21,488 nt of DNA from Planctomycetota bacterium (GTDB lineage Bacteria; Planctomycetota; GCA-002687715; DRQF01), in assembly GCA_036479435.1 (NCBI GenBank), contig JAZGFI010000162.1, forward strand, positions 1 through 21,488. Direction: 5' to 3'. The position numbers and the translations under genes were made by a program. Shown piece after piece: positions 6,390 through 21,488 of this stretch. Position 1 is the stretch's first letter; each line of letters opens with the position of its first letter. The notes under the pieces are model-generated. The model made no database searches. It was given only the letters and a program-made list of their open reading frames with translations, and had not been told where the DNA came from.

Positions 6390-6430
6390 CAGAGCACTCG
6401 AGCCGCGGGCTCAATCAAGCTTTTGGATGC

Positions 6431-6464
6431 AAAACGGGCCGATCACCCTAAGGTGATCGGCCCG
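6431..6464 (-). terminator. Intrinsic terminator between convergent genes
   Basis: 13-bp perfect stem CGGGCCGATCACC/GGTGATCGGCCCG (6435-6464) with a 4-nt loop, followed by TTTT on the minus strand. Confidence 0.75.
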
Positions 6465-6497
6465 AAAAGTATGAACTCGATTGTTGCTTTTCAGAGG

Positions 6498-7346
6498 CTA
6501 TCGGGTCAGGGGAGTTTTGCCGGCGGAGTTGTAGGGCATGGCGAGTTTCCCGAAGGGCGTGTCCAGGTCCATGATGCCGCTGAGGCCGTAGTTGGCGTCG
6601 GAGCCGCGGAGCATGTTGAAGGCGGCGAGGCCGAGGGAAGCGGGGGAGAGGTTGAAGCCGATTTCGAGGGGCTTGTTGACGCCTTGTTCCAGTGAGGTGC
6701 CGCTGTTGATGGCGCTGCGGGCGACTTGCTGACCACCCAAAGTCAGGTCGTAGGCGAGGCGAGAGAGGTCGATGGGAAAGTCGTTGGTGTTCTCGATGCC
6801 CAAGAGCACGGTGGCGGCGGCGCTAGTGAACGACAGGGAGTCCCAGCTGAGATTTTGAACTTCGATCTTGGGGACATTCGGAATCGGGAACTCGCCGGTC
6901 TTTTTGAGCGGCAAGCGGATTTGGTCGAGACCGGGAGCATCGACGCGAATGCCGAGGTCGGCTTCGTAGGGCACGACGTTTCCGGGGCGAATTCCGCTCA
7001 ACACCGCGAGAGCTTGTTGGAAGGGGATGCGCGCCAAAAGAGGGACTGTGGTTCTACCGTTGGCGGGGATTGAGGCCGAGCCGGCACTTTGCCCGCTGAG
7101 GAATGACTTGCCGGCACTGGCCAGGCTCCAGTCCAATCCCGCGACGGGAAGCGGCACGCCATAGGGGTTGGTCACGTCGAGGTCAAAGGCCAAGGTGATC
7201 GACTCGGCATCAAAGCCCTGGAAGCTCACTCCCGAGACCGAAGCCGTGGGTTTGTCGAGGCCGTCGAGCATCCCGCCCAAACCTTGGCAGGAGTTGAACA
7301 CAAAGACCGAACAAAGAGCGAGAATGACTGCCGAAATGCGATGCAT
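6498..7346 (-). CDS. LEA type 2 / WHy-domain lipoprotein (two tandem domains)
   Basis: Lipobox-like FNSC after a hydrophobic stretch; two WHy repeats (LDVTNPYGVPLPVAGLDWSL; LGIENTNDFPIDLSRLAYDL); AAGAGG SD. Confidence 0.88.
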   Translation of the reverse strand: MHRISAVILALCSVFVFNSCQGLGGMLDGLDKPTASVSGVSFQGFDAESITLAFDLDVTNPYGVPLPVAGLDWSLASAGKSFLSGQSAGSASIPANGRTTVPLLARIPFQQALAVLSGIRPGNVVPYEADLGIRVDAPGLDQIRLPLKKTGEFPIPNVPKIEVQNLSWDSLSFTSAAATVLLGIENTNDFPIDLSRLAYDLTLGGQQVARSAINSGTSLEQGVNKPLEIGFNLSPASLGLAAFNMLRGSDANYGLSGIMDLDTPFGKLAMPYNSAGKTPLTR

Positions 7347-7471
7347 GGTTTAAACCTCTTGTAATTTCTAAGCGCCACTTCCGTGGCGATGAGTTCATTG
7401 TTGCAGGTTGCGCCTTTTTGCGCTTCCCTCGAGTACCGAGGGAAGTTGGAAGGCGCAGAAATCCGGTCTAC

Positions 7472-10400
7472 TTAGTTGCTGCCACCACCGAGAAGGCCAC
7501 CCAGGCCGCCGAGGATGTCTTTTTTCTTCTTCTTCTTTTTCTTCTTCTCGTCCGTCTTCTTCTCGTCGGTCTTTTTGTCTTTCTTCTTGCCGCCCAACAG
7601 GCCGCCGAGTCCTTCGAGAATCCGATCCTTGGGCTTCTTTTTGCCGTCGGTTTTCTTGTCGCCGTCTTTGCCGCCGCCCAACAGACCGCTCAGGCCACTG
7701 GGCTTTTTGCCCCCCAGCAGATCGGAGATGCCTTTGTCGAGCCGGCTTTTGATGGCGCCTTCGATGAGTTTCGCCGGATCGGGAAGACGAAGACCGGGCG
7801 AACTCACATGGCCTTTTAGCCCCAGGGGCAAAAAGCCGTTAGAGGCCAAAATCGGGCTGAACTTATCCCATTCTTTGATGCGGCCCGGTTCGGGGCGGAT
7901 GCCGAGTTTGTAGTTCAGGTCGCCATTGAAGGCCGTCGAACCGCCAAGTTGAAGGTCGAGAGGACTTCCCTTCATGTTGAAGGCCTCTTGAAACACGGCG
8001 CCGTCGCGCACGGTGATGCCGGTTTGCAGCGCGTCAAAATCGAGGCGCGGCGGAATCTTTAAGAAACGAGCCAAGGTCGTCAGCAGGGGGCCGCCGACGA
8101 TGCTGCCTTTCGCCGAGCTGAAAGATCCGGTGCCGTTGAGGCTGTTCAGCAGGGTATCCTGGTCGAAGCTACGGCCCTTCAGCTTCATGTTGAGGCTGAC
8201 TTTGGTTTCTACTTTGGCTCCGATGCCCGCGAAAATGGGGATGACGCGCGCGATGGTCGGCTGGAATTTCTCGACAACATTGACGTCGCGAGCGTCGACG
8301 CTGAACTCGAGGATGGGCTCTTCGGGCCTCATGTCGAGGTCGAGACCGAGTGTGGCCGGGCCGCCGTTGACGGTGGCCGTACCACGGCTGAGTTTGCCCA
8401 CGCCGTTGGTCATGTTGCCTTGCAAATCGAAGGCATCCATGGTCAAACCACCGATACGAAGCTGGTCGATTTTGGCCAGGAGGCTGCCGGTCGAGCCCGC
8501 CCAATCGGCGTCATCGCCCAAGGGCATGTCGACGTCGAGGTTGAGTTGGCCGCGCCCCGAACCGTCGACGTCGTCGAAGTAAAGGGCCAGCCAGTTCTGC
8601 GCGAAGGCTTGCGGTTGCAGCTGCGATTGCGTCGAAAGCACGACGCGCTTGCCGGGGCGGTAGTTCATGCGACCGGTAGCGACAATGCCCGCGGCGGTCA
8701 GGTCGAGTTTCGTGACGTCCCAAGCTTGGGTCGCTTCGTCTCGCCGGCCTTTCAGCCCGAGTACGAGGCCAGAATTCATGCTCTGAAACTGACGTTTGTC
8801 GGTGGGGCGTATGCCCATGCGATCGCCGTTGACGCTAAAGTTGAAGCCGCCGTCGGCGTTGACTTGGCCGAGCACTTTCAAGTCCCCGCGAAGCGCTGCG
8901 CCATCTTCGGGCTCAAGCACGGCGTTTCGAAGTTCGGCGCGACGGATGTTGAGGTCCTGCAAGCCCTCGCTCATGACGAAGTCCAAATCGTAGTCGACGC
9001 TTTGGGCGCCAAGGGTTTGATCGCCCGCCAGTTCGCCCGACATATTGAGCTGGCTGGCGCGGCCCTTGCCGCTGAAGCGAAGGGCCTCACCCGTCACGAT
9101 ACTGCCTTCGCCGTGGAGTTCTCCCGCGATCCGGCCGGGCTTGAAAGCGGTGATCAAAGCATCGAGGTCCTGCAGGAAGCCGTCGATGCGGTAGGTCCAG
9201 TTGCCAACGCTGGTGTCGTCTTCGTTGGTAACCAAAGTGCCCTGAAGCTGAGCCTTGGTGCGCGCGGTTTGTAGATCGGCTTTGCGAACGACGAGCTTAT
9301 TTGAAGTTTGTTCGATGGCGAAGTCGACCCGCGATTGCGAAAGAGCCGAGGGCTTCATCGCCTCATCGAGGAAGGGACGGCTCAATTGGACGAGATCTGC
9401 CGTCCCGGCCAGGGCCAAGCGAAGCGAGCTGTCTTCGTCGTCGCCGAGTCTTTGGTTCATGCTGCCTTGGAGGCGGCAGACGCCGGAGTTGAGGATGAGC
9501 GAGTTGATGTCGAGGACGTCGTCGTCGCGATTCATCGTGCCCTTGGCGCGGAAGTCAATCTTGCCCAAGGAAAAAGGCCCATCGCCCAGCGCTTCATGGG
9601 TCAGATCTACGCGGTTTCCGGTGAGTGTGGTATCGAACCCAAGGCCTTCGGGGCGGCCATTGAGAGTGCCGACCAAGCGAACGCGACCCGAGGCACTTCC
9701 CGGCATGAGGTCGCCGACCAAAGCCATGATGTCGTCAAGATTGGCGTCGGCATTGATGTTGATTTGTCCCGTTGAAGCGCTGTCTTCCTCGCCCAGCTTC
9801 AAGCTTCCGGTCGCGCGCGCTTTCGCAAAGGACGCGTCGAGCCGGATGTCCTCAAGGGTGATGGTGTCGTCCAACATCGTGAGATCATGCTTCAGCAGAA
9901 CGCGGTCTTCGCTAAGCGGCGGCATGCCCTCTTTGAAGGGCGCGGCTCTTAGATTCATGACGGTGGTCTCGCCGCGGAGCGTGACTCGGCCGTCCGCAGC
10001 CGTGGTCAACTTGACTTTCGTTTCCAGGTCACCCGATAGGTCGCGCGGCTCTTGGCTCAGCTTGGCGAGGCGGTCCAAGGCGGCACGCAGGGTGAGATCG
10101 AAATTCCCTTTGAAGAACTTTCCGCTGTAGTCGATGACGCCCTCGGCATCCATATCGACAAGGTCGCCTTTGATCGTGGCGCTTTTGACTTCGAGTTTTT
10201 GATCGGGGTGAATCACGCCGTCTAAGCGGGCCACCGAAACGACGACGGGTTCGTCGAAACCCTCCATGCCCTTGGCTTCCGCGTCTTTGAGTTCGAAGTT
10301 CAAAGTTCCCGAGGGATTGGAATCAGTATCAAGTGCGAAGTCCGAATTCAGCGTGACCGATTGAATGCGGTGCCGCCCCGATTTGAACTTGTCCGCGAAA

Positions 10401-11218
10401 GCGAGGTTGCTGGCATTGAACGTGCCGACGATTTTCCATTGGCCGCCCTCGCGTGTGATGAGCTCGTCCATGGTGAATCGACCGCCGGCCATCTCCAGCC
10501 AGGGCGCCAAAGCGTCTTTGAATCTCCCCAAGTCGCCGTTGTCGCTCTTGATGCGGGCGCTGATGTCGACTTCGTCGCCGGTGCGTAGTTTGCGTCCGTC
10601 GAACAACTTGGCTTCGCCTTCGATAGAAATCGCTGGGTCTTGGATGGTGAAGGTCACCGGCTCGCCGGTCTTGACCTTGACGCGAATCTCCTGAATGGAC
10701 TCCACGCGGATCGGATTGGCGTAGGCCGGATCGTCGTAGATGATCGTGAGATCTTTGACGACCGCGTTGATAGCCAGTTTCGGCAATTCGCTGGCTTCGC
10801 CTGCGGCTTCTTCTTTCGCGGAGGATTTTCCCCGGCCGCTGCCGTCGCCCTTTGTCGGGCTCGATTTCTTGGTCTTAGGTGCCGAGCCCCGTTGCCGCAC
10901 CACGACCTTTTCTGCCCGCAGTTCTTCGATCTTGATCTCGCCGCCGAGCAAGGCCATGAGATTGGGTTTGGCCTCAAGACGTCCGATCTTGATGTCCGGG
11001 GCGTCAGCTGCGCGGCCATCGATCACAATCCCCTTGGCATCCAGGCCGGACAGCCAGCCAAAGGAGAAGTCTTTCACCTCGACGTGAGCATCCATGGAAG
11101 CCGACAGCTGATCCGTGACTTTGTCGCGAATGAAGCCGCCTGCGATGGTCGGTAGCAGGGCGATCACGACGACGAGCAATAAGAGCGCGATCAGGGTGTA
11201 CTTAATGAACTTTTTCAT
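7472..11218 (-). CDS. AsmA-like (bridge-like beta-taco) envelope protein
   Basis: 1248 aa; N-terminal TM anchor followed by an AsmA-like segment (VEVKDFSFGWLSGLDAKGIVI..PNLMALLGGEIKIEEL); repeated beta-strand pattern; AsmA-type C-terminus (LNGTGSFS..G..LGGSTAFNGDLNY). Confidence 0.8.
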   Translation of the reverse strand: MKKFIKYTLIALLLLVVVIALLPTIAGGFIRDKVTDQLSASMDAHVEVKDFSFGWLSGLDAKGIVIDGRAADAPDIKIGRLEAKPNLMALLGGEIKIEELRAEKVVVRQRGSAPKTKKSSPTKGDGSGRGKSSAKEEAAGEASELPKLAINAVVKDLTIIYDDPAYANPIRVESIQEIRVKVKTGEPVTFTIQDPAISIEGEAKLFDGRKLRTGDEVDISARIKSDNGDLGRFKDALAPWLEMAGGRFTMDELITREGGQWKIVGTFNASNLAFADKFKSGRHRIQSVTLNSDFALDTDSNPSGTLNFELKDAEAKGMEGFDEPVVVSVARLDGVIHPDQKLEVKSATIKGDLVDMDAEGVIDYSGKFFKGNFDLTLRAALDRLAKLSQEPRDLSGDLETKVKLTTAADGRVTLRGETTVMNLRAAPFKEGMPPLSEDRVLLKHDLTMLDDTITLEDIRLDASFAKARATGSLKLGEEDSASTGQININADANLDDIMALVGDLMPGSASGRVRLVGTLNGRPEGLGFDTTLTGNRVDLTHEALGDGPFSLGKIDFRAKGTMNRDDDVLDINSLILNSGVCRLQGSMNQRLGDDEDSSLRLALAGTADLVQLSRPFLDEAMKPSALSQSRVDFAIEQTSNKLVVRKADLQTARTKAQLQGTLVTNEDDTSVGNWTYRIDGFLQDLDALITAFKPGRIAGELHGEGSIVTGEALRFSGKGRASQLNMSGELAGDQTLGAQSVDYDLDFVMSEGLQDLNIRRAELRNAVLEPEDGAALRGDLKVLGQVNADGGFNFSVNGDRMGIRPTDKRQFQSMNSGLVLGLKGRRDEATQAWDVTKLDLTAAGIVATGRMNYRPGKRVVLSTQSQLQPQAFAQNWLALYFDDVDGSGRGQLNLDVDMPLGDDADWAGSTGSLLAKIDQLRIGGLTMDAFDLQGNMTNGVGKLSRGTATVNGGPATLGLDLDMRPEEPILEFSVDARDVNVVEKFQPTIARVIPIFAGIGAKVETKVSLNMKLKGRSFDQDTLLNSLNGTGSFSSAKGSIVGGPLLTTLARFLKIPPRLDFDALQTGITVRDGAVFQEAFNMKGSPLDLQLGGSTAFNGDLNYKLGIRPEPGRIKEWDKFSPILASNGFLPLGLKGHVSSPGLRLPDPAKLIEGAIKSRLDKGISDLLGGKKPSGLSGLLGGGKDGDKKTDGKKKPKDRILEGLGGLLGGKKKDKKTDEKKTDEKKKKKKKKKDILGGLGGLLGGGSN
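7475..7740 (-). repeat. Low-complexity C-terminal tail of the AsmA-like gene: poly-Lys, KKTDE repeats, repeated (G)LLGG motifs
   Basis: (TTC)n-rich tract at about 7520-7590 encoding KKKDKKTDEKKTDEKKKKKKKKK, with four LLGG units around it. Confidence 0.85.
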
Positions 11219-11726
11219 GACGAGCCATTCGAGTCGGTCTGAGTTTGGTGACGCGTTCGAGCGCGCCCTTCATGATAGGCACCGCGAGCCCGAACAGCCC
11301 AGGAATGCCGGTTAGGAAAAGTCCTAAGAGCGAGTGAATCGACCGTTCTGCTCTTGAAAGTGCCAAGTTGTGTCTTAGCAGAGAGCAATATTGTTGCCTT
11401 TGGTCGCATTTGCGTATTGCGTGAGATATTATTCGTATTTATATAGTAATAAAACCGGCGCGGATTGCCGCCCTTACGACTCTAGGGAATCACCCGTACG
11501 GTTCCCTAACTCCTTGCGAAAAACGACATTGCTATCCCGAAACAGTCTTGCGCTTTTCTTCTGGGCGAACAAAATGGCCGGAGTGCGAGACAGAGCGCAC
11601 GCGAAGTTGTTGCAAACCGAATGAGGCTTAGAGCCGCGGCCCTGGTTGTTCCAGGACTCCGAGGATTGTCGAGAAGCATTAGGTCTGCAGCATGGATCAA
11701 CGAAGACACCTTGAGGACTGATGATT

Positions 11727-13376
11727 ATGAGTCGATTCAGCTTTTACCCGGTTCTACTGGCCGTCTTCGCGATGGCCATCGCGTTGCCGGGTTGTCACAC
11801 CCAACAGAACCACCGTGGCGGCGATGCCATGGACACCGCAACTTCGCGTCACAGCGATGATGGCATGGCCGACACGGGCATGGACGATGGCGGCATGGCC
11901 GACACGGGCATGGACGACATGGGCTCTGGTGGAATGGTCATAGACAGCGGCCCGTCGGGCGGCACGCACATGGTCGGCGGCAATTGCGTCCGCACCCTTT
12001 ACATCCCTTCCGGCAGCCGCAACACCAGCACCGTGATGTTGGAAAAGCGCGCTCCCATCGAAGTGATGCTCGGCGTTCCCTTCGAGTACACCATCGCGGT
12101 CGGTAACCTGACCAGCGAAAAGCTCGAAGACGTCGCGGTCATGGATCGCGTCCCGAATGGTCTGACCATTCAGGATTCGACGCCCCCCTTCCAGCGCTCT
12201 GCCGATGGCAAGTACAGCTGGGTTCTTGGCGACGTCGCCGCTGGCTCGAGCCAGGAGATTCGCGTTCGCGCGGTCGCCAACTCGCTCGGCGAGCACAAGT
12301 ACTGCGCCGAAGTCTCCTACAACCAACTCGCTTGCTGCACCACGAAGGTCGTCGAGCCCAACATCACGCTCACCAAGAACATCACGCCAGCTGACGGCTT
12401 GGTGTGTGATCCCTACAGCTGCGTGATCACCGTGACCAACACCGGTACCGGTCCAGCCCGTGGCGTTGTCGTTCGCGACAACCTGCCCGCCGGACTCACC
12501 TCAGATGACGGCCGCAATAACCTCTCCTGGGATGTCGGCACGCTCAACGCGGGCGAAACCCGTGAAATCCGCTTCAACCTGAAGGCCAACGCCACCGGTC
12601 AGTACACCAACTCCGCGGAAGCTACTGCGGACGGTGGACTCACCAGCAGCGCCAGCGCCAGCATGACGGCTCGCAACTGTGAGCTCTCGATCACCAAGTC
12701 CGGACCGGACAAGATCTTTGGCGGCCAGCAGGCCACCTACGAGATCTCGGTGACCAACAGCGGCAACGCTGATGCCCGTGACTGCGTTGTCGAGGACATG
12801 CTCCCGGCCAACAGCACCTTCGTTAGCGCCAGTGATGGCGGTCAGAACGTCGGTGGATCGGTTCGCTGGAACGTCGGCGTTCTCCGCGCCGGTGAAAGCC
12901 GCAACTTCAGCGTCAGCGTTCGCGCTGGTAGCATCGGCACCATGCGCAACGTCGCTCGCGTGTCGTCTTACTGCTGCCCGCCGGCCCAGGCCGAAGCGGT
13001 CACCGAAGTTCGGGGTATTCCCGCGGTTCTCCTCGAGGTCATTGACCTTGAAGACCCGATTCCGGTCGGCTCTGAAGTCACGTACAAAATTCGCGTGACC
13101 AACCAGGGTTCGGCTCAGGACACCAACATCATCATCACCGTTAACCTCGAAGACACTTCGGCGTTCGTCACCGGTGGTGGCGCTACGAACCACAGTGTCT
13201 CGGGTTCGACCATTACCTTTGCGCCGCTGCCCTCGCTCGCCCCGGGTGGCGTTGCCGAGTGGACGGTTCGCGTCAAGGCCGTGTCGGCTGGTGATGTCCG
13301 CTTCGCGGTTCAAATGGACACTGACGAGCTCAGCCGTCCGGTGAACGAAACCGAAGCGACGAACTTCTACAACTAA
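11727..13376 (+). CDS. omcB: OmcB-like large cysteine-rich DUF11-repeat lipoprotein
   Basis: Lipobox-like LPGC; about 4 DUF11 repeats (YTIAVGN, ITVTNTG..VVVRDNLP, YEISVTNSG..VEDMLP, YKIRVTNQG); C-terminal 'DLEDPIPVG..YKIRVTNQGSAQDTN' parallels chlamydial OmcB. GAGG SD favours ATG 11727 (alternative 11721). Confidence 0.85.
   Translation: MSRFSFYPVLLAVFAMAIALPGCHTQQNHRGGDAMDTATSRHSDDGMADTGMDDGGMADTGMDDMGSGGMVIDSGPSGGTHMVGGNCVRTLYIPSGSRNTSTVMLEKRAPIEVMLGVPFEYTIAVGNLTSEKLEDVAVMDRVPNGLTIQDSTPPFQRSADGKYSWVLGDVAAGSSQEIRVRAVANSLGEHKYCAEVSYNQLACCTTKVVEPNITLTKNITPADGLVCDPYSCVITVTNTGTGPARGVVVRDNLPAGLTSDDGRNNLSWDVGTLNAGETREIRFNLKANATGQYTNSAEATADGGLTSSASASMTARNCELSITKSGPDKIFGGQQATYEISVTNSGNADARDCVVEDMLPANSTFVSASDGGQNVGGSVRWNVGVLRAGESRNFSVSVRAGSIGTMRNVARVSSYCCPPAQAEAVTEVRGIPAVLLEVIDLEDPIPVGSEVTYKIRVTNQGSAQDTNIIITVNLEDTSAFVTGGGATNHSVSGSTITFAPLPSLAPGGVAEWTVRVKAVSAGDVRFAVQMDTDELSRPVNETEATNFYN
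11862..11917 (+). repeat. Intragenic direct repeat (26-bp exact copies, 30-bp period) encoding GMADTGMD x2
   Basis: GGCATGGCCGACACGGGCATGGACGA at 11862-11887 and 11892-11917. Confidence 0.9.
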
Positions 13377-13400
13377 ATCTCCACCGAGATTTGTAGAACC

Positions 13401-13439
13401 AAAAGCGCCGCCGACCTTAGGGTCGGCGGCGCTTTTTTT
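13401..13439. terminator. Bidirectional intrinsic terminator
   Basis: AAAAGCGCCGCCGACC-TTAG-GGTCGGCGGCGCTTTTTTT between the convergent omcB-like and MMT genes. Confidence 0.9.
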
Positions 13440-13479
13440 GGATGGCAAGTCTCAGGGAATGAACGGACCGAAGGTTCGC

Positions 13480-16400
13480 CTAAAAGCGATCAAGCGCTGT
13501 GAGCGCGCGCTCGAATTCTTCCTCGTCAACCGATAAGACGAAGCGGCAATGCCCGGGTAGCCCGGTCCAGCGCCCGCCGTTCACCAACAACCCGGTGCGG
13601 TAAAACAGCGCAGTCGCGATATTATCTTCGTTAAGCACCCAAGTTTCGTCGCCTCCAGGCCCGAGGCCGCTTCGCGTTTGGCCCAACAGCTGTGAGGGAT
13701 GGGCCATGACGAAAAGGCCGCCCTCCGGGGGCAGCGGCGACCAACCGCGATCGCGAAGCTTCTCGACGAGGCGCTTAGCTCGCGAGGCCAGAATCTCTCG
13801 CTGTTTTTCGGTCGCTTTGAGTGCCGACTCGTTCACGTCGCCGCGGTTGACGTCCCCGAGGAACTGGTGCATCGCAAAGGTCAAAGTGTTGTGTGGTGGC
13901 GCGTAGGCGGCTTCAGCTCTAAGCGCCTGGCAATGAACGGCGGAGCTTGCCCAGGAGTAACCAAAGCGCAGACCGCCCGCGGCAAACTCCTTGGAGACGC
14001 CGCCTAAGACAATGAGGGCAAGATCGGGATTGGCCTTCAGGGTTGAAGCCAGATCGACGGGGAGGGCTGGAGGCTCGAACTCAAGACCCGAGAAGATCGT
14101 GTCAAGGACCACGGTGATCCTGAGACTGGCCGCCATCTTGAGGAGATCCGAAAGCTCGCCGCTGCCGTAGACCGCCCCGCTAGGATTGACGACCGGCGCG
14201 TTGAGGTAGAGCCAGCGCTTTGCATCGCCAGCTTCGCCGTCGACGGCCTTGCGAAGACTGGCCGTCTGGAGCTTGAAGGCGTGCTGAACGTCGGTGTCGA
14301 CAAAGTCGACCGGCAATCCCATGAAATCGGCTACGGCCGCGAAATAGCCGTAGCTACCACGGGGCAACAAAAGCCGGGCTCCCTCGGTGCGGGCGGCGCG
14401 CATCATCGCGGCAAATAGGGGCGCGACGCCCGATCCCAGGACGACCTCGTCGGGCGAGGCAAGCACCAAGCCCAATCGTCGCTCCAAGAACCTTGCGACT
14501 TCGGGCCGGGCATCCGCTTCCTCGTCGCTGAGGTGGCGGCGTGCGAAGGCTTCCAAGATCCGCTCGCGGAGGCGAGCGGGAGAGGGGAGGGCGTTTTCGC
14601 CGTAGTCGAGGCGTATCGTCGCCTCGCCCAAAGTCAGTCGATGCGAATCTAAGGCCGGATGGTCAAAGGCCCTGCGGCAGGCCGGGGGCAGATCTTTGGA
14701 TACGAGCTCGCCCTGCGGAAGCCGCCGATGGCCGGGGGCTTGCAATCGAGCGAGGCGAAAGCTCGAGAGGTCAGCGAGGATGCGCTCGTAGTAGGCCTGT
14801 GTGAGGCGAGGGGTCCGAGAATAGGTCAACTCGGCGGCATAGATCAGAGCTTGGGCTAAGGCCGCGTTCTCGGTGATCAAGAAACTGAGCTCGAGGGCCG
14901 GATAGACTTGGCCGCGATTGAGCGCACAAGTGATGCCCACGTGGGACGGCAAGGGCCCCGTTGCCAAAGACTTAAGGACACCGTCCAAGGCCGGACTGGA
15001 GGAAAGCTCGAAACTCTCCGAGATGTCGACGATCAACCGAGAGTTCAGCCGCTCGGAGCTCTCAAGCAAACGCCGAAAAGCGTTTGCCGAGCTGACCTCG
15101 CGACTGGCGAGCGCGGTGATGACCATGTCGGGCTCCAACTTTTCCATGAGCGCACAGACGAGATCGCTGCCGCGGGGGATCTCCAGCAGCTCGATCCCCA
15201 TCGTCGCCAAGCGTTGTACGAAGTCTTCGGGGAGGCCATTCAGCAGGGCTTGGTCACAGAGGATGCGTTTGGGTTCGTAGATCGTTGAGAGATTGAGCAG
15301 GGCGTAGCCACGGCTCGGAAAAGTTGTGAAGCAAGTGGGCGCCAACTCCGCCCGAAAGTAATGGGCAAAGTAATCAGAAAGCTGGCGTCGCAGCTCGTCG
15401 GACCCCGCCGTGTCTTCGTAGGGAAAGCAAATGTCTTCTTCCAGCGTTTCGCCGAGAGAAGCCAAGAACGAGCACTTCTCTTCGCTCTTAGCGGCGTCCT
15501 CGTAGGAAAGGTCGAGGGCGCCAGCGACGCGCCGAAAGGGCTCTTTTCGCAGCGTTGAGAAGATACGTCGGAGATCGATGGGGTGGCGCAGTTGCGCGCC
15601 GAAGACGGTGATCGCGTGAAAGATGTCGCCGCCGGCCCGGGCGTAGGCCAAGGCGCAGCGCGCGTCGATCGGCGTTTCGCTGTGAAGGTCGGAGAAAAAC
15701 TCGAAGCGGTGGCTGCTACCGTTTTCAATCTCAACGAGCGCTTCGATTTCGGTATCGCCAGCCTGTTGAACCCGAGTTTGCCAGACTTTCTGGACGGCGA
15801 AACCGCGGCGTTCGAAAAGCCGGCGCAAGACGGCTTCGCCCGGGCGGCCCCCCATGTTGAAGACGACGCGACCCTGTGGCCTGAGGATCTCAATCGATTC
15901 TTCAAGCACCCGAGCCATCAAGCCCAGCCCGAACTGATCCTCGACGTAGCCCTGGCGACCGCAATAGTTGCTCAAGGACAAAAGTGCCTCGTCACTGGCT
16001 TGGTCGCCGAGAGCTTGGAGACTCTCTTGGATGTCCGGGCTGAGGACCTGAGGGATGCAGCCGACCACGCGGTCGAGCCGGATGTCATGGTCGATGCAGT
16101 GTCCCAAAAGATCCGAAACGTGGAATTCGCAACGATCGAGGAGGCTTTTCCCCTCGCCGTCGAGCCTTAACTCGCCTTGGTCGTCGTAGGCATTCAAAAA
16201 CAGGTTCAGACGTGCGCAGAGAATGGCGCGGGGGTTGATGTCAAGCCCATAGACTTTGGCGGGACGAGTGCGTTGAGCCAGAGCCATGGACACCCAGCCG
16301 TTGCCACAACCAGATTCGGCGACCACCATGCGCTCAAATTCGGTCACGGGAATGCGGATGAGACCCTCATAAAAAGTGAAGGACCACTCCTCGGGGGCAA

Positions 16401-16662
16401 ACACGCTCGGCAACTGCAACAAGTCGAGGGCGATCTCGCCGTTGCCCGAGGGGATCTCGAGCCGCGAAAAGGAAAAATGCGGGGCCGCCGCCCGATCTGA
16501 GGCATCGGCATACCAGCGATGAATCGACTGGAGTTCTATTAACGCCGCCGCTCGGCTCTGAGTGGCTTCAAGCCGCTCAAGTAGTGATTCCAAAGCGGCC
16601 ACCGTTGCGGCGCTAGAATCTCGAGTGCTTTGAATCCACTCATCAACTAAAAACCGGCTCAC
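13480..16662 (-). CDS. mmt: Full-length plant-type methionine S-methyltransferase (SAM-MT domain plus PLP aminotransferase-like domains)
   Basis: Blocks matching plant MMT as I recall it: PSVFAPEEWSFTFYEGL, GCGNGW, KVYGLDINPRA, LLDRCEFHVSDLL, RVVGCIPQ, SLSNYC, EDQFGLGL, FNMGGRPG, HRFEFF. C-terminal NPSG, DTIF and SKEFAAGGLRFG. GTG 16662 lies 6 nt after AAGGAGG (track uses TTG 16665). Confidence 0.93.
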   Translation of the reverse strand: MSRFLVDEWIQSTRDSSAATVAALESLLERLEATQSRAAALIELQSIHRWYADASDRAAAPHFSFSRLEIPSGNGEIALDLLQLPSVFAPEEWSFTFYEGLIRIPVTEFERMVVAESGCGNGWVSMALAQRTRPAKVYGLDINPRAILCARLNLFLNAYDDQGELRLDGEGKSLLDRCEFHVSDLLGHCIDHDIRLDRVVGCIPQVLSPDIQESLQALGDQASDEALLSLSNYCGRQGYVEDQFGLGLMARVLEESIEILRPQGRVVFNMGGRPGEAVLRRLFERRGFAVQKVWQTRVQQAGDTEIEALVEIENGSSHRFEFFSDLHSETPIDARCALAYARAGGDIFHAITVFGAQLRHPIDLRRIFSTLRKEPFRRVAGALDLSYEDAAKSEEKCSFLASLGETLEEDICFPYEDTAGSDELRRQLSDYFAHYFRAELAPTCFTTFPSRGYALLNLSTIYEPKRILCDQALLNGLPEDFVQRLATMGIELLEIPRGSDLVCALMEKLEPDMVITALASREVSSANAFRRLLESSERLNSRLIVDISESFELSSSPALDGVLKSLATGPLPSHVGITCALNRGQVYPALELSFLITENAALAQALIYAAELTYSRTPRLTQAYYERILADLSSFRLARLQAPGHRRLPQGELVSKDLPPACRRAFDHPALDSHRLTLGEATIRLDYGENALPSPARLRERILEAFARRHLSDEEADARPEVARFLERRLGLVLASPDEVVLGSGVAPLFAAMMRAARTEGARLLLPRGSYGYFAAVADFMGLPVDFVDTDVQHAFKLQTASLRKAVDGEAGDAKRWLYLNAPVVNPSGAVYGSGELSDLLKMAASLRITVVLDTIFSGLEFEPPALPVDLASTLKANPDLALIVLGGVSKEFAAGGLRFGYSWASSAVHCQALRAEAAYAPPHNTLTFAMHQFLGDVNRGDVNESALKATEKQREILASRAKRLVEKLRDRGWSPLPPEGGLFVMAHPSQLLGQTRSGLGPGGDETWVLNEDNIATALFYRTGLLVNGGRWTGLPGHCRFVLSVDEEEFERALTALDRF

Positions 16663-16877
16663 CAAAAACCTCCTTCAAGACGGTCACAGCATACCCTAGG
16701 CAAGTCTACTGCCTTCCAACGAGGAGAGTAGCGATGACGTTCCCGGCGGAGAAAAGACGAATTTTCTCTTGGCCGCAGCCGGATTTATTACGATGAGCGG
16801 AGCTGCTGGCACGCGCTGTCCACCCAATGGGGGGAGACGGTGCTCTCGAGCCCGGCTGGATTAAGGCGACGATACCC

Positions 16878-17852
16878 ATGATCTGGCGAACCGGAGTGAC
16901 AAGACGAGGACCGCTTTGCGACAAAGAAACGCAGGGGGGCAAGAGGCGTTTTGCTTTCACCTTGTTGGAGGACTTGGAGCGCAGTTTTCAAGGCGAAAGA
17001 GACGAGGCCTTGTTGGCTAGGATCTACAACCAACTGGTGGTGGGCGAAAAGATCTACAAGACAACGCGTCGCGGTCGCTTCAAGGATCTGGATGCGCGCC
17101 TTGCAGACGAAGTTGCCCAACGCATGCCGCATGTACGCCCCGTGCGCATCCACGATGTGGGAGCTTCCAGTGGGGTGACCAGCTTAGAACTTCAGTTACT
17201 TTTTGACGGGAGGCATCCCGTTGAGGTGCATGCAACGGATTTCTACGATCGACTCGTGGCCGTAAAGCCCCGCGCTTCGGTTTGGACCGTAGTTTTCGAT
17301 GTCGACGGCGAAGCGCTGCAATTTGTCAGTGGGAGCTTTGTGCTTTCGGCACAAGAAGGAGAATCGCGGAAACTTCCGATCAACCGTGCCTTGGCGGCTA
17401 GGGCAAAACAAAGAGTCTTGCTCAGGGCGCAGGCGCTCCGAGACGCGGTGCAACATCAAAATGGCGAGGGTGTGGTGCAATTAGATGATGGTGAGGTCCG
17501 GGTCATTCGCCTCGTCCATCCTGATGTGGCCGACCTTCTCAACTCTCACTCCGGCTTCACTTTTGGCCGCCATGATGTTTTCGAGCCGACCCCGACCACC
17601 TACGATGTGGTTCGTGCCGTCAATGTTTTGAATCCAGGTTACTTTGACGACGACCGCGTCCGCTCTGCGAGCCTTGCCGTCGCCAAGAGCTTGCGTTCAG
17701 AGGGCCTTTTTTTGGTGGGCCGTACGATCGACGAAGAGCAGCGACAAAACAGAGCAACTCTCTTTTTGAAAACCGAAGATCGATTCCTGCCTCTATGGGA
17801 CCACCAAGGGGGCGCTGAGAATCGCGAAGTCGTGCTGTCGCTTCAGTGGTGA
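16878..17852 (+). CDS. Class I SAM-dependent methyltransferase-like protein (CheR-like C-terminal motif)
   Basis: Motif I-like IHDVGASSG, HATD, and YDVVRAVNVL..YF..SLRSEGLFLVG. Start is uncertain (16878 or 16827). Confidence 0.7.
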   Translation: MIWRTGVTRRGPLCDKETQGGKRRFAFTLLEDLERSFQGERDEALLARIYNQLVVGEKIYKTTRRGRFKDLDARLADEVAQRMPHVRPVRIHDVGASSGVTSLELQLLFDGRHPVEVHATDFYDRLVAVKPRASVWTVVFDVDGEALQFVSGSFVLSAQEGESRKLPINRALAARAKQRVLLRAQALRDAVQHQNGEGVVQLDDGEVRVIRLVHPDVADLLNSHSGFTFGRHDVFEPTPTTYDVVRAVNVLNPGYFDDDRVRSASLAVAKSLRSEGLFLVGRTIDEEQRQNRATLFLKTEDRFLPLWDHQGGAENREVVLSLQW

Positions 17853-18071
17853 GCGGGGCCGCAACGAAGACGCCTTGGCTCAGCAGGACTTCTTCAGGCC
17901 CGCGAGGAACCGCGATGCGAGTGTCGCGAACGCCACCAAAGAACCTTCGCCCCTCAGCCGGTGCCGCGTGAGAGCAAGCTCGCAGCAAGCAAATCCCAGA
18001 AAATACTGTTGTTAATGCGCTAGCCCAACGCTTCAGATACTGAGGTAGCGATGCGACCTGGTCCCGGCCTT

Positions 18072-18097
18072 AGCCACTCCGCGACGGAGTGGCTTTT
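18072..18097 (+). terminator. Terminator-like hairpin just upstream of the PLD genes
   Basis: AGCCACTCCG-CGA-CGGAGTGGCT followed by TTT. Confidence 0.55.
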
Positions 18098-18112
18098 GGA
18101 TCGGGGGATTCT

Positions 18113-18413
18113 ATGAGCGGCGCCACGGTGGGCGTGGCCAACGTCGGGGTGCGGCTCTTGCCCACTCGCGGTCGCAGCCCGAGCGAGGGCCGAAAGCCTG
18201 AGGATTCCCAGCCGGGCGCTGATGGCTAATCCCGTGCGAGGGAGCCACGTGAAGATGGCGATTACCGAAAACATCGTCCATTTGGGTTCACACAATTGGT
18301 CACCTGGCGCCTTTAGTAGCCAAACGCAGGACTTCGTGGCCATCGAGTCCCAAGCGTTCTCCGCTTTGTTGGCGCAGCAATTCGAGTGGCAATGGAATCG
18401 AGCGGAGGGATAG
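18113..18413 (+). pseudogene. Internally deleted, frameshifted phospholipase D-family (single HKD) gene
   Basis: GGGGGA then ATG 18113 gives MSGATVGVANVGVRLLPTR in one frame. A different frame carries ..ARAESLRIPSRALMANPVRGSHVKMAITENIVHLGSHNWS..QFEWQW. Total 301 nt, too short for a PLD fold. Confidence 0.65.
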
Positions 18414-18415
18414 GC

Positions 18416-19283
18416 ATGTTCAGCTTCAAATGGGACGACTTCGCAGATGATGCTTTGCTTGACCGCGTTCGTTTGGCGTCTGGGCTCAGCGCTGCCACGG
18501 AGTTGTCCCACCTTCGCCCGCGGCTTAGGCGCATCCAAGGGTTTGGTGAGCAAGGTGCGAAAGAGCTTGCAAACGTCATCCGTTTCGATCGTGTCGAGGA
18601 TCTGGCCAGCGAGAAGTTGATGCTAAGTGAGGACTTCGCGAGCAACCTTCAAAGCCTGATGTCCGTCCAACCAGGCACGACCGAGATTGCCAAATTGGAG
18701 GGGGCCCTTTTGTCGGTTGCCGTCACCTGCGCGAGCGAACCGCACCCCTACGCGGAGGCGGGGATGCAACACCCGATGGGCCTTGCCGCTGCACCCGCGG
18801 GGGGCCAAACCGGCAGATGTCGGTCTTTTTTGGGGATCGGAATACTACCGGGCGCTTCCAGCCTTTTTTCAGGCGGCCACTTCTTCCATCGATGTCTGTA
18901 TGTTTCACATCGCGATGCCTGGTGATTCTCATCCAACGCGAAGCTTGCTCGACGAACTCATCGCGGCGAAAGGGCGAGGCGTGACCGTCCGCGTTCTGAT
19001 GGACGCGGATCGCCCCTCCGACCCCTATCTTTCGACCGTCATCAACGCCAACGCAAAAGAGTATCTATCGGCAGCAGGAATATCGCTGCGCTTAGATCCG
19101 GTCGGTACGCTTTTGCATTCGAAGTTCATCGTGATCGACCAGACTCGCGCGATCATCGGGAGCCACAACTGGTCCGCGGGTTCATATTTTCAATTTGATG
19201 ACCTCAGCGTTGTCATTTCATCTCAATCTCTGGCGACGACGCAGCTGGATCGTTTCGAGGTCTTGTGGGCGGCGGGCAACTGA
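18416..19283 (+). pseudogene. Frameshifted HhH + PLD/Nuc-like nuclease gene
   Basis: GGAGGG SD and ATG 18416; HhH-like RLRRIQGFGEQGAKELA. The +1 frame holds a complete PLD domain (EYYRAL..SIDVCMF..RGVTVRVLMD..HSKFIVID-x6-GSHN). Removing one G from G6 at 18799-18804 joins the two into 288 aa. Confidence 0.72.
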
Positions 19284-19317
19284 CCTGGGCGCCTCCAGAT
19301 CAAGTCTGCGAACGTAC

Positions 19318-20256
19318 TTAGGTGATCAACAGGGCCTGAATAAAGGCGCCGCTCGTCGTCAAGTCATCGTCGGAGATGGACCGGTACCTTGAAGCTAGGT
19401 CGGTGGGGATAAGTTTCGAAGGCGTCTTGATTTTCTTCTCACACACGATCTCAAAGCCCTCGTCCTTCATCATGGTGACGTGGGTTGAGTGCGGCTCTCG
19501 GTTCAAAAGGAATGGCCTTTTGCCTTTGATCAGCTTCCAGGTGAGTTTCGAGTAGGCCCAGTGACCATTCCATTCGTCGGCGGTGCAATGGCACTTATAA
19601 TCGATCTGGTGCGACATGTAGCCAGTTGGTTTCAGCCACAAGCGCATAGACTTGTAAGTGTTGCGCAGATCATCGACGTGCTCGAGAACGGCTTGGGAGT
19701 AAATCATATCGACGGACTCTCTTTCGAGAACGCCTGAGTCGTACCATGGGACTTTGTACTGGATGAGCGGATTTCCGGCCTGGGTGAGCTTGATGGCCTC
19801 TCTGATTTTCTCGAGGCGCGAAGGCTCCAGTGCTTGTTTCAGTCGGCTTTCGTCAAGAAAGTCGGCCGGGAAATCATAGTTGTCTAGATGGGGTCTGACT
19901 TTCGGAAATTCCTCGTCCCCGGGAATCGGCGTCCGGTTCCTAAAGAGCGTGACCAGTTCATCGAAAATCTTTAGGTTTGTTTCGGTATCGGCGTGGTGGA
20001 CGACATCAAAGGCAAAGTACTTGTCACATCCCGAAATGAGGGCGGCCAGTCCCATGCCCAGCGAATCTCCCGGGCCCAATTCAGCGACGACTTTCGGATG
20101 GGGGTTAAGACCATTGGTTTTGGCCATCACCAGGTGGCGCAGCCATACGGAATAGCAGTACTCGGCAGAGTCTGTCCCGCCCGTGCCTTTCGCATGATAG
20201 TGGCTCGCCCCCGGAATGTAGGTCGCGAGGCCATGGATAAGAAGCTTTAGTTTCAT
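19318..20256 (-). CDS. Class I SAM-dependent methyltransferase (Methyltransf_11/23-like)
   Basis: VAELGPGDSLG (motif I), AFDV, ESVDMIYSQAVLEHV, WLKPTG. Confidence 0.88.
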   Translation of the reverse strand: MKLKLLIHGLATYIPGASHYHAKGTGGTDSAEYCYSVWLRHLVMAKTNGLNPHPKVVAELGPGDSLGMGLAALISGCDKYFAFDVVHHADTETNLKIFDELVTLFRNRTPIPGDEEFPKVRPHLDNYDFPADFLDESRLKQALEPSRLEKIREAIKLTQAGNPLIQYKVPWYDSGVLERESVDMIYSQAVLEHVDDLRNTYKSMRLWLKPTGYMSHQIDYKCHCTADEWNGHWAYSKLTWKLIKGKRPFLLNREPHSTHVTMMKDEGFEIVCEKKIKTPSKLIPTDLASRYRSISDDDLTTSGAFIQALLIT

Positions 20257-20307
20257 GGCGTGGACTAACTCTTACTCTGCTGATTGCGATTTGACACTCG
20301 AGTTGGC

Positions 20308-20339
20308 GGCCCGCTTTCACGATTCAGTGAAAGCGGGCC
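20308..20339. other. GC-rich stem-loop downstream of the thioredoxin-like gene
   Basis: GGCCCGCTTTCAC-GATTCA-GTGAAAGCGGGCC, a 13-bp perfect stem with no clear U-tract. Confidence 0.6.
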
Positions 20340-20344
20340 AATCG

Positions 20345-20689
20345 TCAGGCCAGAAGCCTTTCGAGCCGATTTGTGAGGCGTTCGATCCCTGACCCCGCGA
20401 AATCTTTGACCTTTTCACCGTCCCGGTAGATGACGTTGAAGGGTAAGACGTCGACGTCCGCCAACCATGGGCTTTGCTTTTTGAAGTCGATCAGGCCGCG
20501 TTGGTCAAGGAGAAGCTTGCCAAAGCGTACCGAGTCAAAGGTGTTTTGCTCCGAGGTCAAAAAGGCCTTCAATTCCACCGTCCAGTCGCTGCAGGCCTGG
20601 CAGTCAGACTTGCCCAACATCAAGACGGCGGTCGGGGACTTCAAAAACTCCTCCCAATTGGAGGCGTCTAAGATCTCGAGGTCGCTCAT
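20345..20689 (-). CDS. Thioredoxin-like protein (CQAC)
   Basis: Trx-fold pattern: LDASNWEEFL, CQAC, cis-Pro loop VLPF, YRDGEKVKDFAG. Confidence 0.85.
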   Translation of the reverse strand: MSDLEILDASNWEEFLKSPTAVLMLGKSDCQACSDWTVELKAFLTSEQNTFDSVRFGKLLLDQRGLIDFKKQSPWLADVDVLPFNVIYRDGEKVKDFAGSGIERLTNRLERLLA

Positions 20690-21213
20690 TATCCGACGTA
20701 GTCCTCACCCTTGCTCCAGTCGGCGCCACAAAGGCCACCGGACTGCAAAGCCTGGACGGTGCGAAGGACCTCCGCCGGGCTGCGGCCGGCACTGAGGTCG
20801 TTGACCGAGACCGAGCGGACGATGCCCTCGTTGTCGACGATGACGGTGCCACGGAAAGCGATGCCCGCGTCTTCCTTCAAGATGCCGAAAGCGCGACTGA
20901 CTTCGTGGCTGGTGTCGGCGAGGACCGGGTGCGTGATGGTCGAACTGAAAGTCTTGCCGTCGTTGAACCAAGCTTGGTGGCTAAAAAAGGAATCAGTGCT
21001 GCAACCGATGATGTCGACGCCATCGTCTTTGAAGTCCCCAAGGCGTTCTTGGAAGCCGCGAATCTCGGTCGGGCAGATGAAGGTGAAATCGAGCGGGTAC
21101 CAGTAGAGAACGTGCCATTTGCCTTTGTAGTCGCCGCTGCTGATCTGGACGTCTTCATTGTTGAGGTAGGCGCCACATTTCCACTCGGGGGATTTTTGGC
21201 CGATGAGACTCAT
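20689..21213 (-). CDS. ahpC: Peroxiredoxin, AhpC/Prx1 typical 2-Cys type
   Basis: YPLDFTFICPTEI (peroxidatic Cys), STDS..H, GRSPAEVLR, and resolving-Cys region GGLCGADW; GGAG SD. Confidence 0.95.
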   Translation of the reverse strand: MSLIGQKSPEWKCGAYLNNEDVQISSGDYKGKWHVLYWYPLDFTFICPTEIRGFQERLGDFKDDGVDIIGCSTDSFFSHQAWFNDGKTFSSTITHPVLADTSHEVSRAFGILKEDAGIAFRGTVIVDNEGIVRSVSVNDLSAGRSPAEVLRTVQALQSGGLCGADWSKGEDYVG

Positions 21214-21488
21214 GAGAGTTTTCTCCGTCTTGAGGGTATTCGATCGAAATCAGGACCAGGCGCTGCGTGCGAACCACCTCGCTCGTGGTGCGGGAGCGGC
21301 TAGGACATCCTGTCCAATAGGTTAGGGTTTGGGCGGCTCAAATCAAGGCGACCACGGCCCTCCCAGCGATTCCGCATCTGCTGGTTCTCGCCATCCCTTC
21401 AGGCAAGGCCAACGAGCCTCAAAGGTGGTTTAGAGGCGGGGCGTAGGTTTGATGCGGAGAATAGCGCCTTCGAATTGCGAGTCTTGTT

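Follow-up and report, generated by a model that had tools for sequence, protein, structure and literature searches.

Methionine S-methyltransferase (MMT) forms S-methylmethionine (SMM) from methionine and S-adenosylmethionine (SAM), and the plant enzyme (EC 2.1.1.12) is a long chain built of three parts. In plants, it is paired with homocysteine methyltransferase (HMT) in the SMM cycle. Plant MMTs are stated to be active in a passage of PMC11464771, and our literature search returned no reaction assigned to the C-terminal two thirds of the plant protein. The bacterial MmtN (Group I; Roseovarius indicus, 7vvv) is a single-domain protein of 305 amino acids, its group members are more than 50% identical to one another, and its gene lies in gene clusters for dimethylsulfoniopropionate (DMSP). 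Long bacterial MMTs were defined as Group III in PMC9135737; Deltaproteobacteria and Oligoflexia are named there as the bacterial carriers, and Planctomycetota are not named for Group III in the parts of the main text and supplements searched. According to the same source, Group III genes are not linked to DMSP or methionine-cycling genes, and the function of SMM in their carriers is hard to predict. Here, we describe such a gene on a contig of 21,488 nucleotides from a Planctomycetota bacterium (JAZGFI010000162.1 of assembly GCA_036479435.1, positions 1 to 21,488 of the forward strand; hereafter, the window). Judged from its sequence, the encoded protein is a Group III MMT, and like other bacterial long MMTs, it appears to keep an intact pyridoxal phosphate (PLP) site that looks decayed in land plants.

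The open frame occupies positions 13480–16665 of the minus strand and gives 1061 amino acids from a TTG at 16665; residue numbers below count from this TTG and are one higher than in the 1060-residue form. The shorter form is the likelier protein because AAGGAGG stands 6 nucleotides before the GTG at 16662, and the ESM Atlas entry of the protein begins at the GTG residue too. BLASTP against ten named land-plant MMTs gave 37–40% identity along the full protein; against the MMT of Pseudobacteriovorax antillogorgiicola (P0100), it gave 42% over 1048 residues. The Group III architecture is present, with a chain of approximately 115 kDa, an N-terminal MmtN-like domain, and a C-terminal aminotransferase domain. 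Homology to plant MMTs, such as those of Selaginella (P0130) and Oryza (P0328), runs from end to end through the same three-part build, and the P. antillogorgiicola protein, one of the Group III MMTs of PMC9135737, shares the length, the domain order, and the lysine and arginine of the PLP site. Identity to four land-plant MMTs is 58–63% in domain 1 (residues 80–360), 36–38% in domain 2, and 27–31% in domain 3. Domain 1 is also 59% identical to that of P. antillogorgiicola, and of the 72 positions that land-plant and bacterial-clade MMTs alike conserve, it has 71. A first-pass annotation of the window had called a full-length plant-type MMT of 1060 residues, and this was confirmed.

Domain 1 carries the motifs ExGxGxG (117–123), SDL (184–186), GCIPQ (202–206), SNY (232–234), and EDQFGLGL (242–249), together with D142. 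A sequence search of the PDB gave MmtN as the sole strong methyltransferase match (residues 92–355, E 1.2e-10) and no full-length MMT structure. Pfam gave weak methyltransferase matches at residues 110–172, and an NCBIfam scan gave no MMT match over the cut-off, its top match, GntC, being generic and far below it. The methyltransferase domain is homologous to that of MmtN, and the GxGxG and SAM-binding residues align (G119, G121, and G123; D142 with D69; C203 with C121); the counterpart of S101/L102 was found by motif only (SDL 184–186), outside the pairwise alignment. Unlike MmtN, whose trimer is held by P169 and R183, the planctomycete protein has V241 and E255 at these places, it is more than three times as long, and its gene does not lie in a DMSP cluster. 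By homology, the formation of SMM from methionine and SAM is likely. It is highly improbable that domain 1 methylates another acceptor. In favour of this, and against the assignment made here, the methionine-binding residues E127, R132, and E250 of MmtN are unmatched (S209, gap, and gap) in the phmmer pairwise alignment, which is distant (E 1e-11) and uncertain in register. Plant MMTs likewise lack these residues at those columns, and the identity and conserved positions shared with plant domain 1 speak against another acceptor, as does the statement in PMC9135737 that far more distant MmtN-like proteins (~30%) are all active on methionine.

The rest of the chain holds the two PLP-fold-like regions that the first-pass annotation had seen, of which domain 3 is complete and domain 2 a partial, degenerate copy. 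An AlphaFold model of the full protein, based on a 94-sequence alignment, reached a predicted local distance difference test score of 92.8 and a predicted template modelling score of 0.93. Domain 3 is matched by Pfam Aminotran_1_2 (residues 717–1058, E 1.5e-34) and by class I aminotransferases of the PDB (residues 680–1061), and the fold-search matches all fall on it. Its model fits prephenate aminotransferase 6f77 with Z 41 and a root-mean-square deviation of 2.5 Å over 379 residues, and 1-aminocyclopropane-1-carboxylate (ACC) synthase 7dlw with Z 38.6; the methionine aminotransferase YbdL is also among the structural matches. The domain shares the fold and the PLP-binding residues of these enzymes but is only ~20% identical to them and is predicted to form an internal pseudo-dimer with one site. 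It is marked by RLDYGEN (685–691), G746, Y772, N827, D855, S891, K892, R900, and R1041. In the alignment to 6f77, the Schiff-base lysine corresponds to K892, the phosphate arginine to R900, the pyridine aspartate to D855, and the carboxylate arginine to R1041; N827 and Y772 stand opposite their usual counterparts, and S891 is also in place. These residues would have the roles usual in the aminotransferase family. The residue set expected of a fold-type I PLP site (K892, D855, N827, R900, S891, Y772, and R1041) is thus complete. Two differences from 6f77 and 7dlw stand out, namely phenylalanine instead of tyrosine at residue 858 and the absence of the acidic-substrate lysine. The latter follows GGG in 6f77, where it serves to bind acidic substrates within that aminotransferase subfamily, and it aligns to A748 here.

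Fold-type I enzymes have a dimeric architecture. In the planctomycete protein, hhalign matched domain 2 to domain 3 at 96.1% (E 3e-9, 188 columns), by which domain 2 is a partial and degenerate copy of the PLP large domain. It has no conserved lysine at the matching place, where lysine occurs in 77 of 156 bacterial-clade homologues and the planctomycete protein has R584. Y416 (155/156), S616 (152/156), and R617 (155/156) are conserved in the same clade, and Y615 adjoins them. By analogy with the dimeric enzymes, domain 2 probably stands in for the second subunit, forming an internal pseudo-dimer in which it would complete the site of domain 3, and the residues that it keeps agree with such a role.

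Bacterial and land-plant proteins differ in this site. The 156 main-clade homologues counted were taken as bacterial by their position in the tree, and the 123 land-plant sequences, the best matches to Selaginella, are mostly angiosperms related to each other, about a quarter of them assigned by similarity. The planctomycete protein has each of the eight site residues checked, as do 146 of the 156 bacterial-clade homologues and 20 of 24 divergent-clade homologues. Taken singly, K892 is retained in 152, R900 in 155, D855 in 155, Y772 in 155, and R1041 in 153 bacterial-clade sequences, and K892 in 23 of the 24 divergent ones. None of the land-plant sequences has all eight; K892 and G746 occur in none, Y772 in one, and R900 in eight. 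The domains differ in this respect: positions that reach 95% conservation or more in the bacterial clade and are not equally kept in land plants number 23 in domain 3 versus 4 in domain 1. On these counts, the PLP site looks intact in bacterial long MMTs and decayed in land plants. The lysine was possibly lost more than once, since the plant-clade sequences P0104 and P0120 keep it and those of Closterium and Mesostigma do not. A literature search that did not include Bourgis et al. (1999) or Williams et al. (2019) turned up neither a planctomycete MMT nor an account of how far the PLP site is preserved.

We suggest that the gene encodes a horizontally acquired and probably bifunctional Group III MMT, a reading that we hold at slightly less than even confidence. 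In the first step, domain 1 would make SMM from methionine and SAM, as suggested by its identity to plant MMTs, the conserved positions, and MmtN as its sole strong match in the PDB. In the second, domains 2 and 3 would form an internal pseudo-dimer with one PLP site, to which domain 3 would supply K892, D855, N827, Y772, R900, and R1041, and the dead domain 2 would supply the cross-subunit residues Y416 and Y615-S616-R617. With the model and the conservation pointing to such a structure, and catalysis presumed from them, we regard this step as probable. In the third, the PLP site would consume the SMM made on the same chain, which is moderately probable if the second step holds. Several considerations argue for it: the whole family retains the fusion; the acidic-substrate lysine of 6f77 is replaced by A748, while the conserved residues D687, Y688, E690, F858, W1033, and Y615 could hold a sulfonium; no MmuM was found over the cut-off in MMT-bearing genomes; and in Novosphingobium BW1, mmtN adjoins a PLP aminotransferase gene (PMC9135737 supplement). 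Judging from the conserved residues, a second reaction at the PLP site, probably on SMM, is likely. The likeliest chemistry would be transamination to 4-dimethylsulfonio-2-oxobutyrate or a related PLP-driven elimination of dimethyl sulfide (DMS). DMS leaves the oxo-acid of SMM easily, and SMM is among the substrates that ACC synthase can use. We rank transamination as likeliest, followed by DMS elimination or ACC-type cyclisation, and then by decarboxylation. The net effect would be a one-protein overflow route for methionine and methyl groups that releases DMS and a C4 oxo-acid. Land plants would have retained the first step, allowed the PLP site to decay, and turned to HMT for the consumption of SMM. 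If the second reaction is true, it would add a route to organosulfur cycling and would explain the plant C-terminal domain as a relic. The contrast between the bacterial and the land-plant PLP site brings the role of SMM in Group III carriers and that of the plant C-terminal region together in one simple assay, and it is here that the planctomycete protein has value as a test protein.

Several observations weigh against this proposal. The tyrosine of the D-x-x-Y motif is replaced by F858, as it is in 155 of the 156 bacterial-clade homologues, and this may mean weakened or altered chemistry; some active fold-I enzymes, CobD for example, have phenylalanine there as well. The type of reaction cannot be read from the fold, since Z lies at 33–41 for aminotransferases, ACC synthases, and C-S lyases alike. 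Loss of the site in land plants is not as clear-cut as K892 by itself implies, because 59 of the 123 land-plant sequences carry a lysine one residue later (893). The host genome encodes MddA, a methanethiol S-methyltransferase, over the cut-off (G000:C27:40373-41089), which offers a separate DMS route. It also has a YitJ-like protein, a fusion of HMT and methylenetetrahydrofolate reductase (HMT-MTHFR), on contig C243, by which SMM recycling is possible. The absence of MmuM is weak evidence, since MmuM was also uncommon in controls: it was over the cut-off in none of 29 MMT-bearing genomes, the unpublished G401 among them, and in one of 14 control genomes. Neighbourhood clustering of 109 loci, with 48 representative neighbours scanned against families, gave no partner gene shared across lineages. 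A regular co-occurrence of MddA with MMT was considered and ruled out, as MddA was over the cut-off in none of the 28 other MMT-bearing genomes.

Some of the same observations would fit a plant-like protein with a single function, in which SMM serves as a methionine/SAM buffer, domains 2 and 3 are a non-catalytic scaffold or a sensor of PLP or amino acids, and SMM is recycled by the YitJ-like protein. Plant MMTs, which PMC11464771 states to be active, have a decayed PLP site by the counts above, frames of 550–760 residues similar to the YitJ-like one occur in several MMT-bearing genomes, and F858 takes the place of the usual tyrosine. Nevertheless, we consider this unlikely. K892, R900, Y772, and R1041 are each retained in 152–155 of 156 sequences that are only ~40% identical, which exceeds the needs of a scaffold; a passage in PMC6302742 describes YitJ as a user of AdoMet, not of SMM; and stand-alone MmuM is missing over the cut-off throughout the MMT-bearing set. 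In the host genome, which is 92% complete, no stand-alone MmuM was found over the cut-off, in contrast to the plant pairing of MMT with HMT, and MetH is present beside the YitJ-like protein. A search for methionine gamma-lyase gave four matches, none over the cut-off. Because there is neither an MmuM nor a shared partner gene, the fused PLP site is the nearest candidate to act on SMM. It is improbable that this site is active on a different substrate, such as methionine and its oxo-acid, whose transamination would supply or deplete domain 1, SAM as in ACC synthase, or selenium analogues. ACC synthases and YbdL are among the structural matches, and the aspartate aminotransferase superfamily includes bacterial ACC synthases (GnmY, in a passage of PMC10491745); yet no structural match stands clear of generic aminotransferases, ACC deaminase was not found in the 92% complete genome, and the fused partner would make SMM the nearest available substrate.

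A role in DMSP or osmolyte synthesis, which the first-pass annotation had also considered, is quite unlikely. The PLP site would then turn SMM toward DMSP-aldehyde or DMSP-amine by transamination or decarboxylation, and generic dehydrogenases would finish the route. P. antillogorgiicola, a carrier of a Group III MMT, makes DMSP, and in Group I, PLP enzymes that would take the route further are encoded in the mmtN clusters (both from PMC9135737 and its supplement); moreover, the sequencing runs that contain the planctomycete DNA include invertebrate metagenomes, and two of the runs are possible sources of the genome. Against this, P. antillogorgiicola was the only DMSP producer among four tested Group III carriers, the other three making none, and the gene is unlinked to DMSP genes there as here (PMC9135737). 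No linked DMSP genes were seen among the window neighbours or in the 109 clustered loci, no search aimed at DsyB, DsyGD, or DMSP lyases having been made. The host genome has one fold-III decarboxylase, in a 680-residue frame, and no second copy, and many carriers, Silvanigrellaceae and others, are lake or river isolates by their record titles. Genomic support for DMSP synthesis and for an SMM cycle is slight. Conserved partner genes were ruled out, as the recurring neighbours reflect Silvanigrellaceae synteny and generic two-component genes. In loci of the Silvanigrellaceae type (L002–L005, L013, L014, L016, L017, L021, and others), MMT lies near rplK-rplA-rplJ-rpoB, and 18 of them have a conserved frame of 350–440 residues close to MMT that has no match in Pfam or NCBIfam.

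Long bacterial MMTs are already known and are scattered across many groups, so that their rarity, as assumed in the first-pass annotation, did not stand, although its mention of deltaproteobacterial forms agrees with PMC9135737. A protein search gave 627 matches at E 1e-10 or better among 7999 candidates, a count that includes plants and generic aminotransferase fusions. The 120 matches listed are 1028–1167 residues long and, the window's own protein aside, 40–54% identical. A GTDB scan gave 25 loci in Cyanobacteria, Silvanigrellaceae and other Bdellovibrionota, Bacteroidota, Acidobacteriota, Sericytochromatia, and Gammaproteobacteria, as titled in their records. In metagenomes, 194 stretches were confirmed and 80 of them kept, and a plasmid search gave zero copies of the methyltransferase domain. 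Trees were built with FastTree from 198 sequences of at least 860 residues, leaving out fragments and the 1200–2400-residue fusions, and with IQ-TREE from 46 of these, leaving out Group I and II MmtN, and the two agree. The planctomycete protein, the plants, and P. antillogorgiicola share one clade of 41 rows (100/100), as against five divergent long forms. Within it, the backbone is unresolved, and a single streptophyte clade (100/100) lies among the bacterial sequences; Mesostigma is its first branch and Closterium its second. The planctomycete protein is sister to P0003 (100/100) within a clade of 10 rows (98/96) whose named members are Acidobacteriota, and it belongs to another subclade than the P. 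antillogorgiicola protein. Forcing it together with P0003 to join the nine plant-clade rows gave p-AU 0.00055 in an approximately unbiased (AU) test under LG+G4 only, with many rows uneven in composition. A sister relationship to plants was ruled out by both trees and this test. The family tree supports a bacterial source for plant MMT, and the planctomycete gene, not being sister to plants, has on this phylogeny no special bearing on that origin, contrary to what the first-pass annotation had proposed.

A broader scenario is one that we advance only tentatively. Bacterial long MMTs in general would be bifunctional, making SMM and then breaking it down at the PLP site, and in several bacterial phyla they would constitute an unrecognised one-gene route that leads from methionine to DMS, or else to ACC or a DMSP precursor. 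Streptophytes would have acquired the gene from a bacterial source no later than Mesostigma; toward land plants, its PLP half would have decayed into a pseudo-enzyme, creating the plant SMM cycle. MMT was seen in the streptophyte algae Mesostigma viride and Closterium (P0159 and P0146), branching below land plants, contrary to PMC6284425, where algae are said to have no MMT. Further relatives vary in build. P0238 and P0259 are proteins of 500–550 residues on long contigs (173 and 49 kb) with a short domain 2 and a domain 3; they keep the SK and GGLRFG motifs, have no methyltransferase domain, and are possible stand-alone PLP modules. Distant relatives of 1200–2400 residues (P0205, P0211, P0213, P0227, P0229, P0254, and similar ones) carry long extensions without a Pfam match, and in a full-length reading, P0205 and P0227 keep the PLP lysine and arginine. 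In P0248, a relative of 1000 residues from a cluster of 16, the GCIPQ motif and the PLP lysine are both gone, a separate case of decay.

The host genome has 5.47 Mb and 58% GC. The host belongs to the Planctomycetota, as the first-pass annotation had suspected, because its 16S gene has zero mismatches at the sites of the planctomycete probes PLA46F and PLA886, ftsZ was not found in the genome (13 of 14 control genomes were positive), and a PSD1 protein is present (0 of 14 controls). The full-length 16S gene (G000:C271:4036-5585) has one mismatch to the general bacterial probe EUB338-I and two to EUB338-II; together with the single PSD1 match, this suggests a class outside Planctomycetia. The MMT gene was found in none of 60 relatives (8 of the same family, 14 of the same order, and 38 of the same phylum), seven of which gave generic aminotransferase matches only, and the earlier claim that the lineage makes SMM accordingly finds no support in the family and order genomes searched. 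With domain 1 as the query, 3 of 400 phylum genomes matched; a planctomycete MMT clade was ruled out, as those three proteins are 29–34% identical and lie beyond the 100/100 branch. The family relative G003 shares the gene order LEA2, AsmA, DUF11, thioredoxin-like, peroxiredoxin with the window but lacks the MMT block: the gap from the DUF11 gene to the thioredoxin-like gene is 1.1 kb and holds repeats only, versus the 6.9-kb MMT block in the window. Three other relatives compared were not syntenic on this side. The gene was probably acquired horizontally, because it is absent from the 60 relatives, the block is missing in G003, and the protein groups with acidobacterial-labelled sequences; a gain here is likelier than many losses, although relatives, synteny, and codon data alone give no direction of transfer. 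Its codon use fits the host, with a GC content at third codon positions (GC3) of 0.72 and a codon score at the 76th percentile of 1996 long open reading frames, by which a recent transfer was ruled out. The gene would thus have come from another bacterium long enough ago for its codon use to match the host. The finding itself is modest: it extends the bacterial Group III MMTs by one member, probably acquired sideways, and by a new phylum. The G003 gap (L053 10800-11930) consists of tandem, non-coding-looking repeats of roughly 150–260 bp, and no RNA run was listed among the sequencing runs that contain the planctomycete DNA.

Misassembly and misbinning were ruled out by spanning contigs, by the orthologues of the DUF11 neighbour in the family, and by an identical MMT protein on a 3.99-Mb contig. 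Single contigs of 21.3 kb from two runs of one sample cover positions 6000–21391 of the window with zero substituted bases, and the DUF11 neighbour has orthologues of 50–59% identity in seven of eight family genomes. The features of the locus are collected in Table 1.

Table 1. Features of the MMT locus, with positions in the window.
Feature	Position	Strand	Basis or remark
Group III (plant-type) methionine S-methyltransferase gene	13480..16662	minus	1060 aa from GTG; 1061 aa from TTG 16665
Ribosome-binding site AAGGAGG	16669..16675	minus	6 nt before GTG 16662, read from sequence
Domain 1, class I SAM-dependent methyltransferase, residues ~60–360	15586..16488	minus	7vvv match and plant MMT identity
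Domain 2, degenerate partial fold-type I large domain, residues ~365–650	14716..15573	minus	hhalign to domain 3
Domain 3, complete fold-type I PLP domain, residues ~655–1061	13483..14703	minus	Pfam, structure match, alignments
K892 codon, aligned to 6f77 Schiff-base lysine (SK)	13990..13992	minus	Alignments and conservation counts
GC-rich hairpin, A/T runs on both sides	13401..13439	no strand	Between converging DUF11 and MMT genes
~6.9-kb block: MMT, CheR-like methyltransferase, phospholipase D-like gene, another methyltransferase	13400..20340	no strand	Between DUF11 and thioredoxin-like gene

The hairpin between the converging genes has a folding energy of -33.1 kcal/mol (z -7.6), with none of 200 shuffles equally stable, and is a probable two-way intrinsic terminator; a consensus terminator scan did not include it among its listed sites. 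The block is lineage-specific, which is a further difference from the P. antillogorgiicola locus. Beside MMT, it holds the CheR-like methyltransferase gene (16827–17852), the phospholipase D-like gene (18687–19283), which is overlapped by an unassigned frame (18386–18925), and the other methyltransferase gene (19318–20256), and the codon use of these genes (16827–20256) is less host-like than that of MMT. The DUF11-repeat protein (11721–13376) resembles the chlamydial cysteine-rich outer-membrane protein. The contig ends in a multi-copy repeat (21363–21488) with a depth approximately 10 times that of the rest and several different flanks. At the other end of the window, an Rrf2-family regulator is followed by a NapH-like membrane ferredoxin protein (122–1541), and positions 1704–4187 encode an 827-residue protein with a beta-propeller and a di-haem cytochrome c peroxidase-like part, which gives weak matches, far below the cut-off, to hydrazine synthase subunits.

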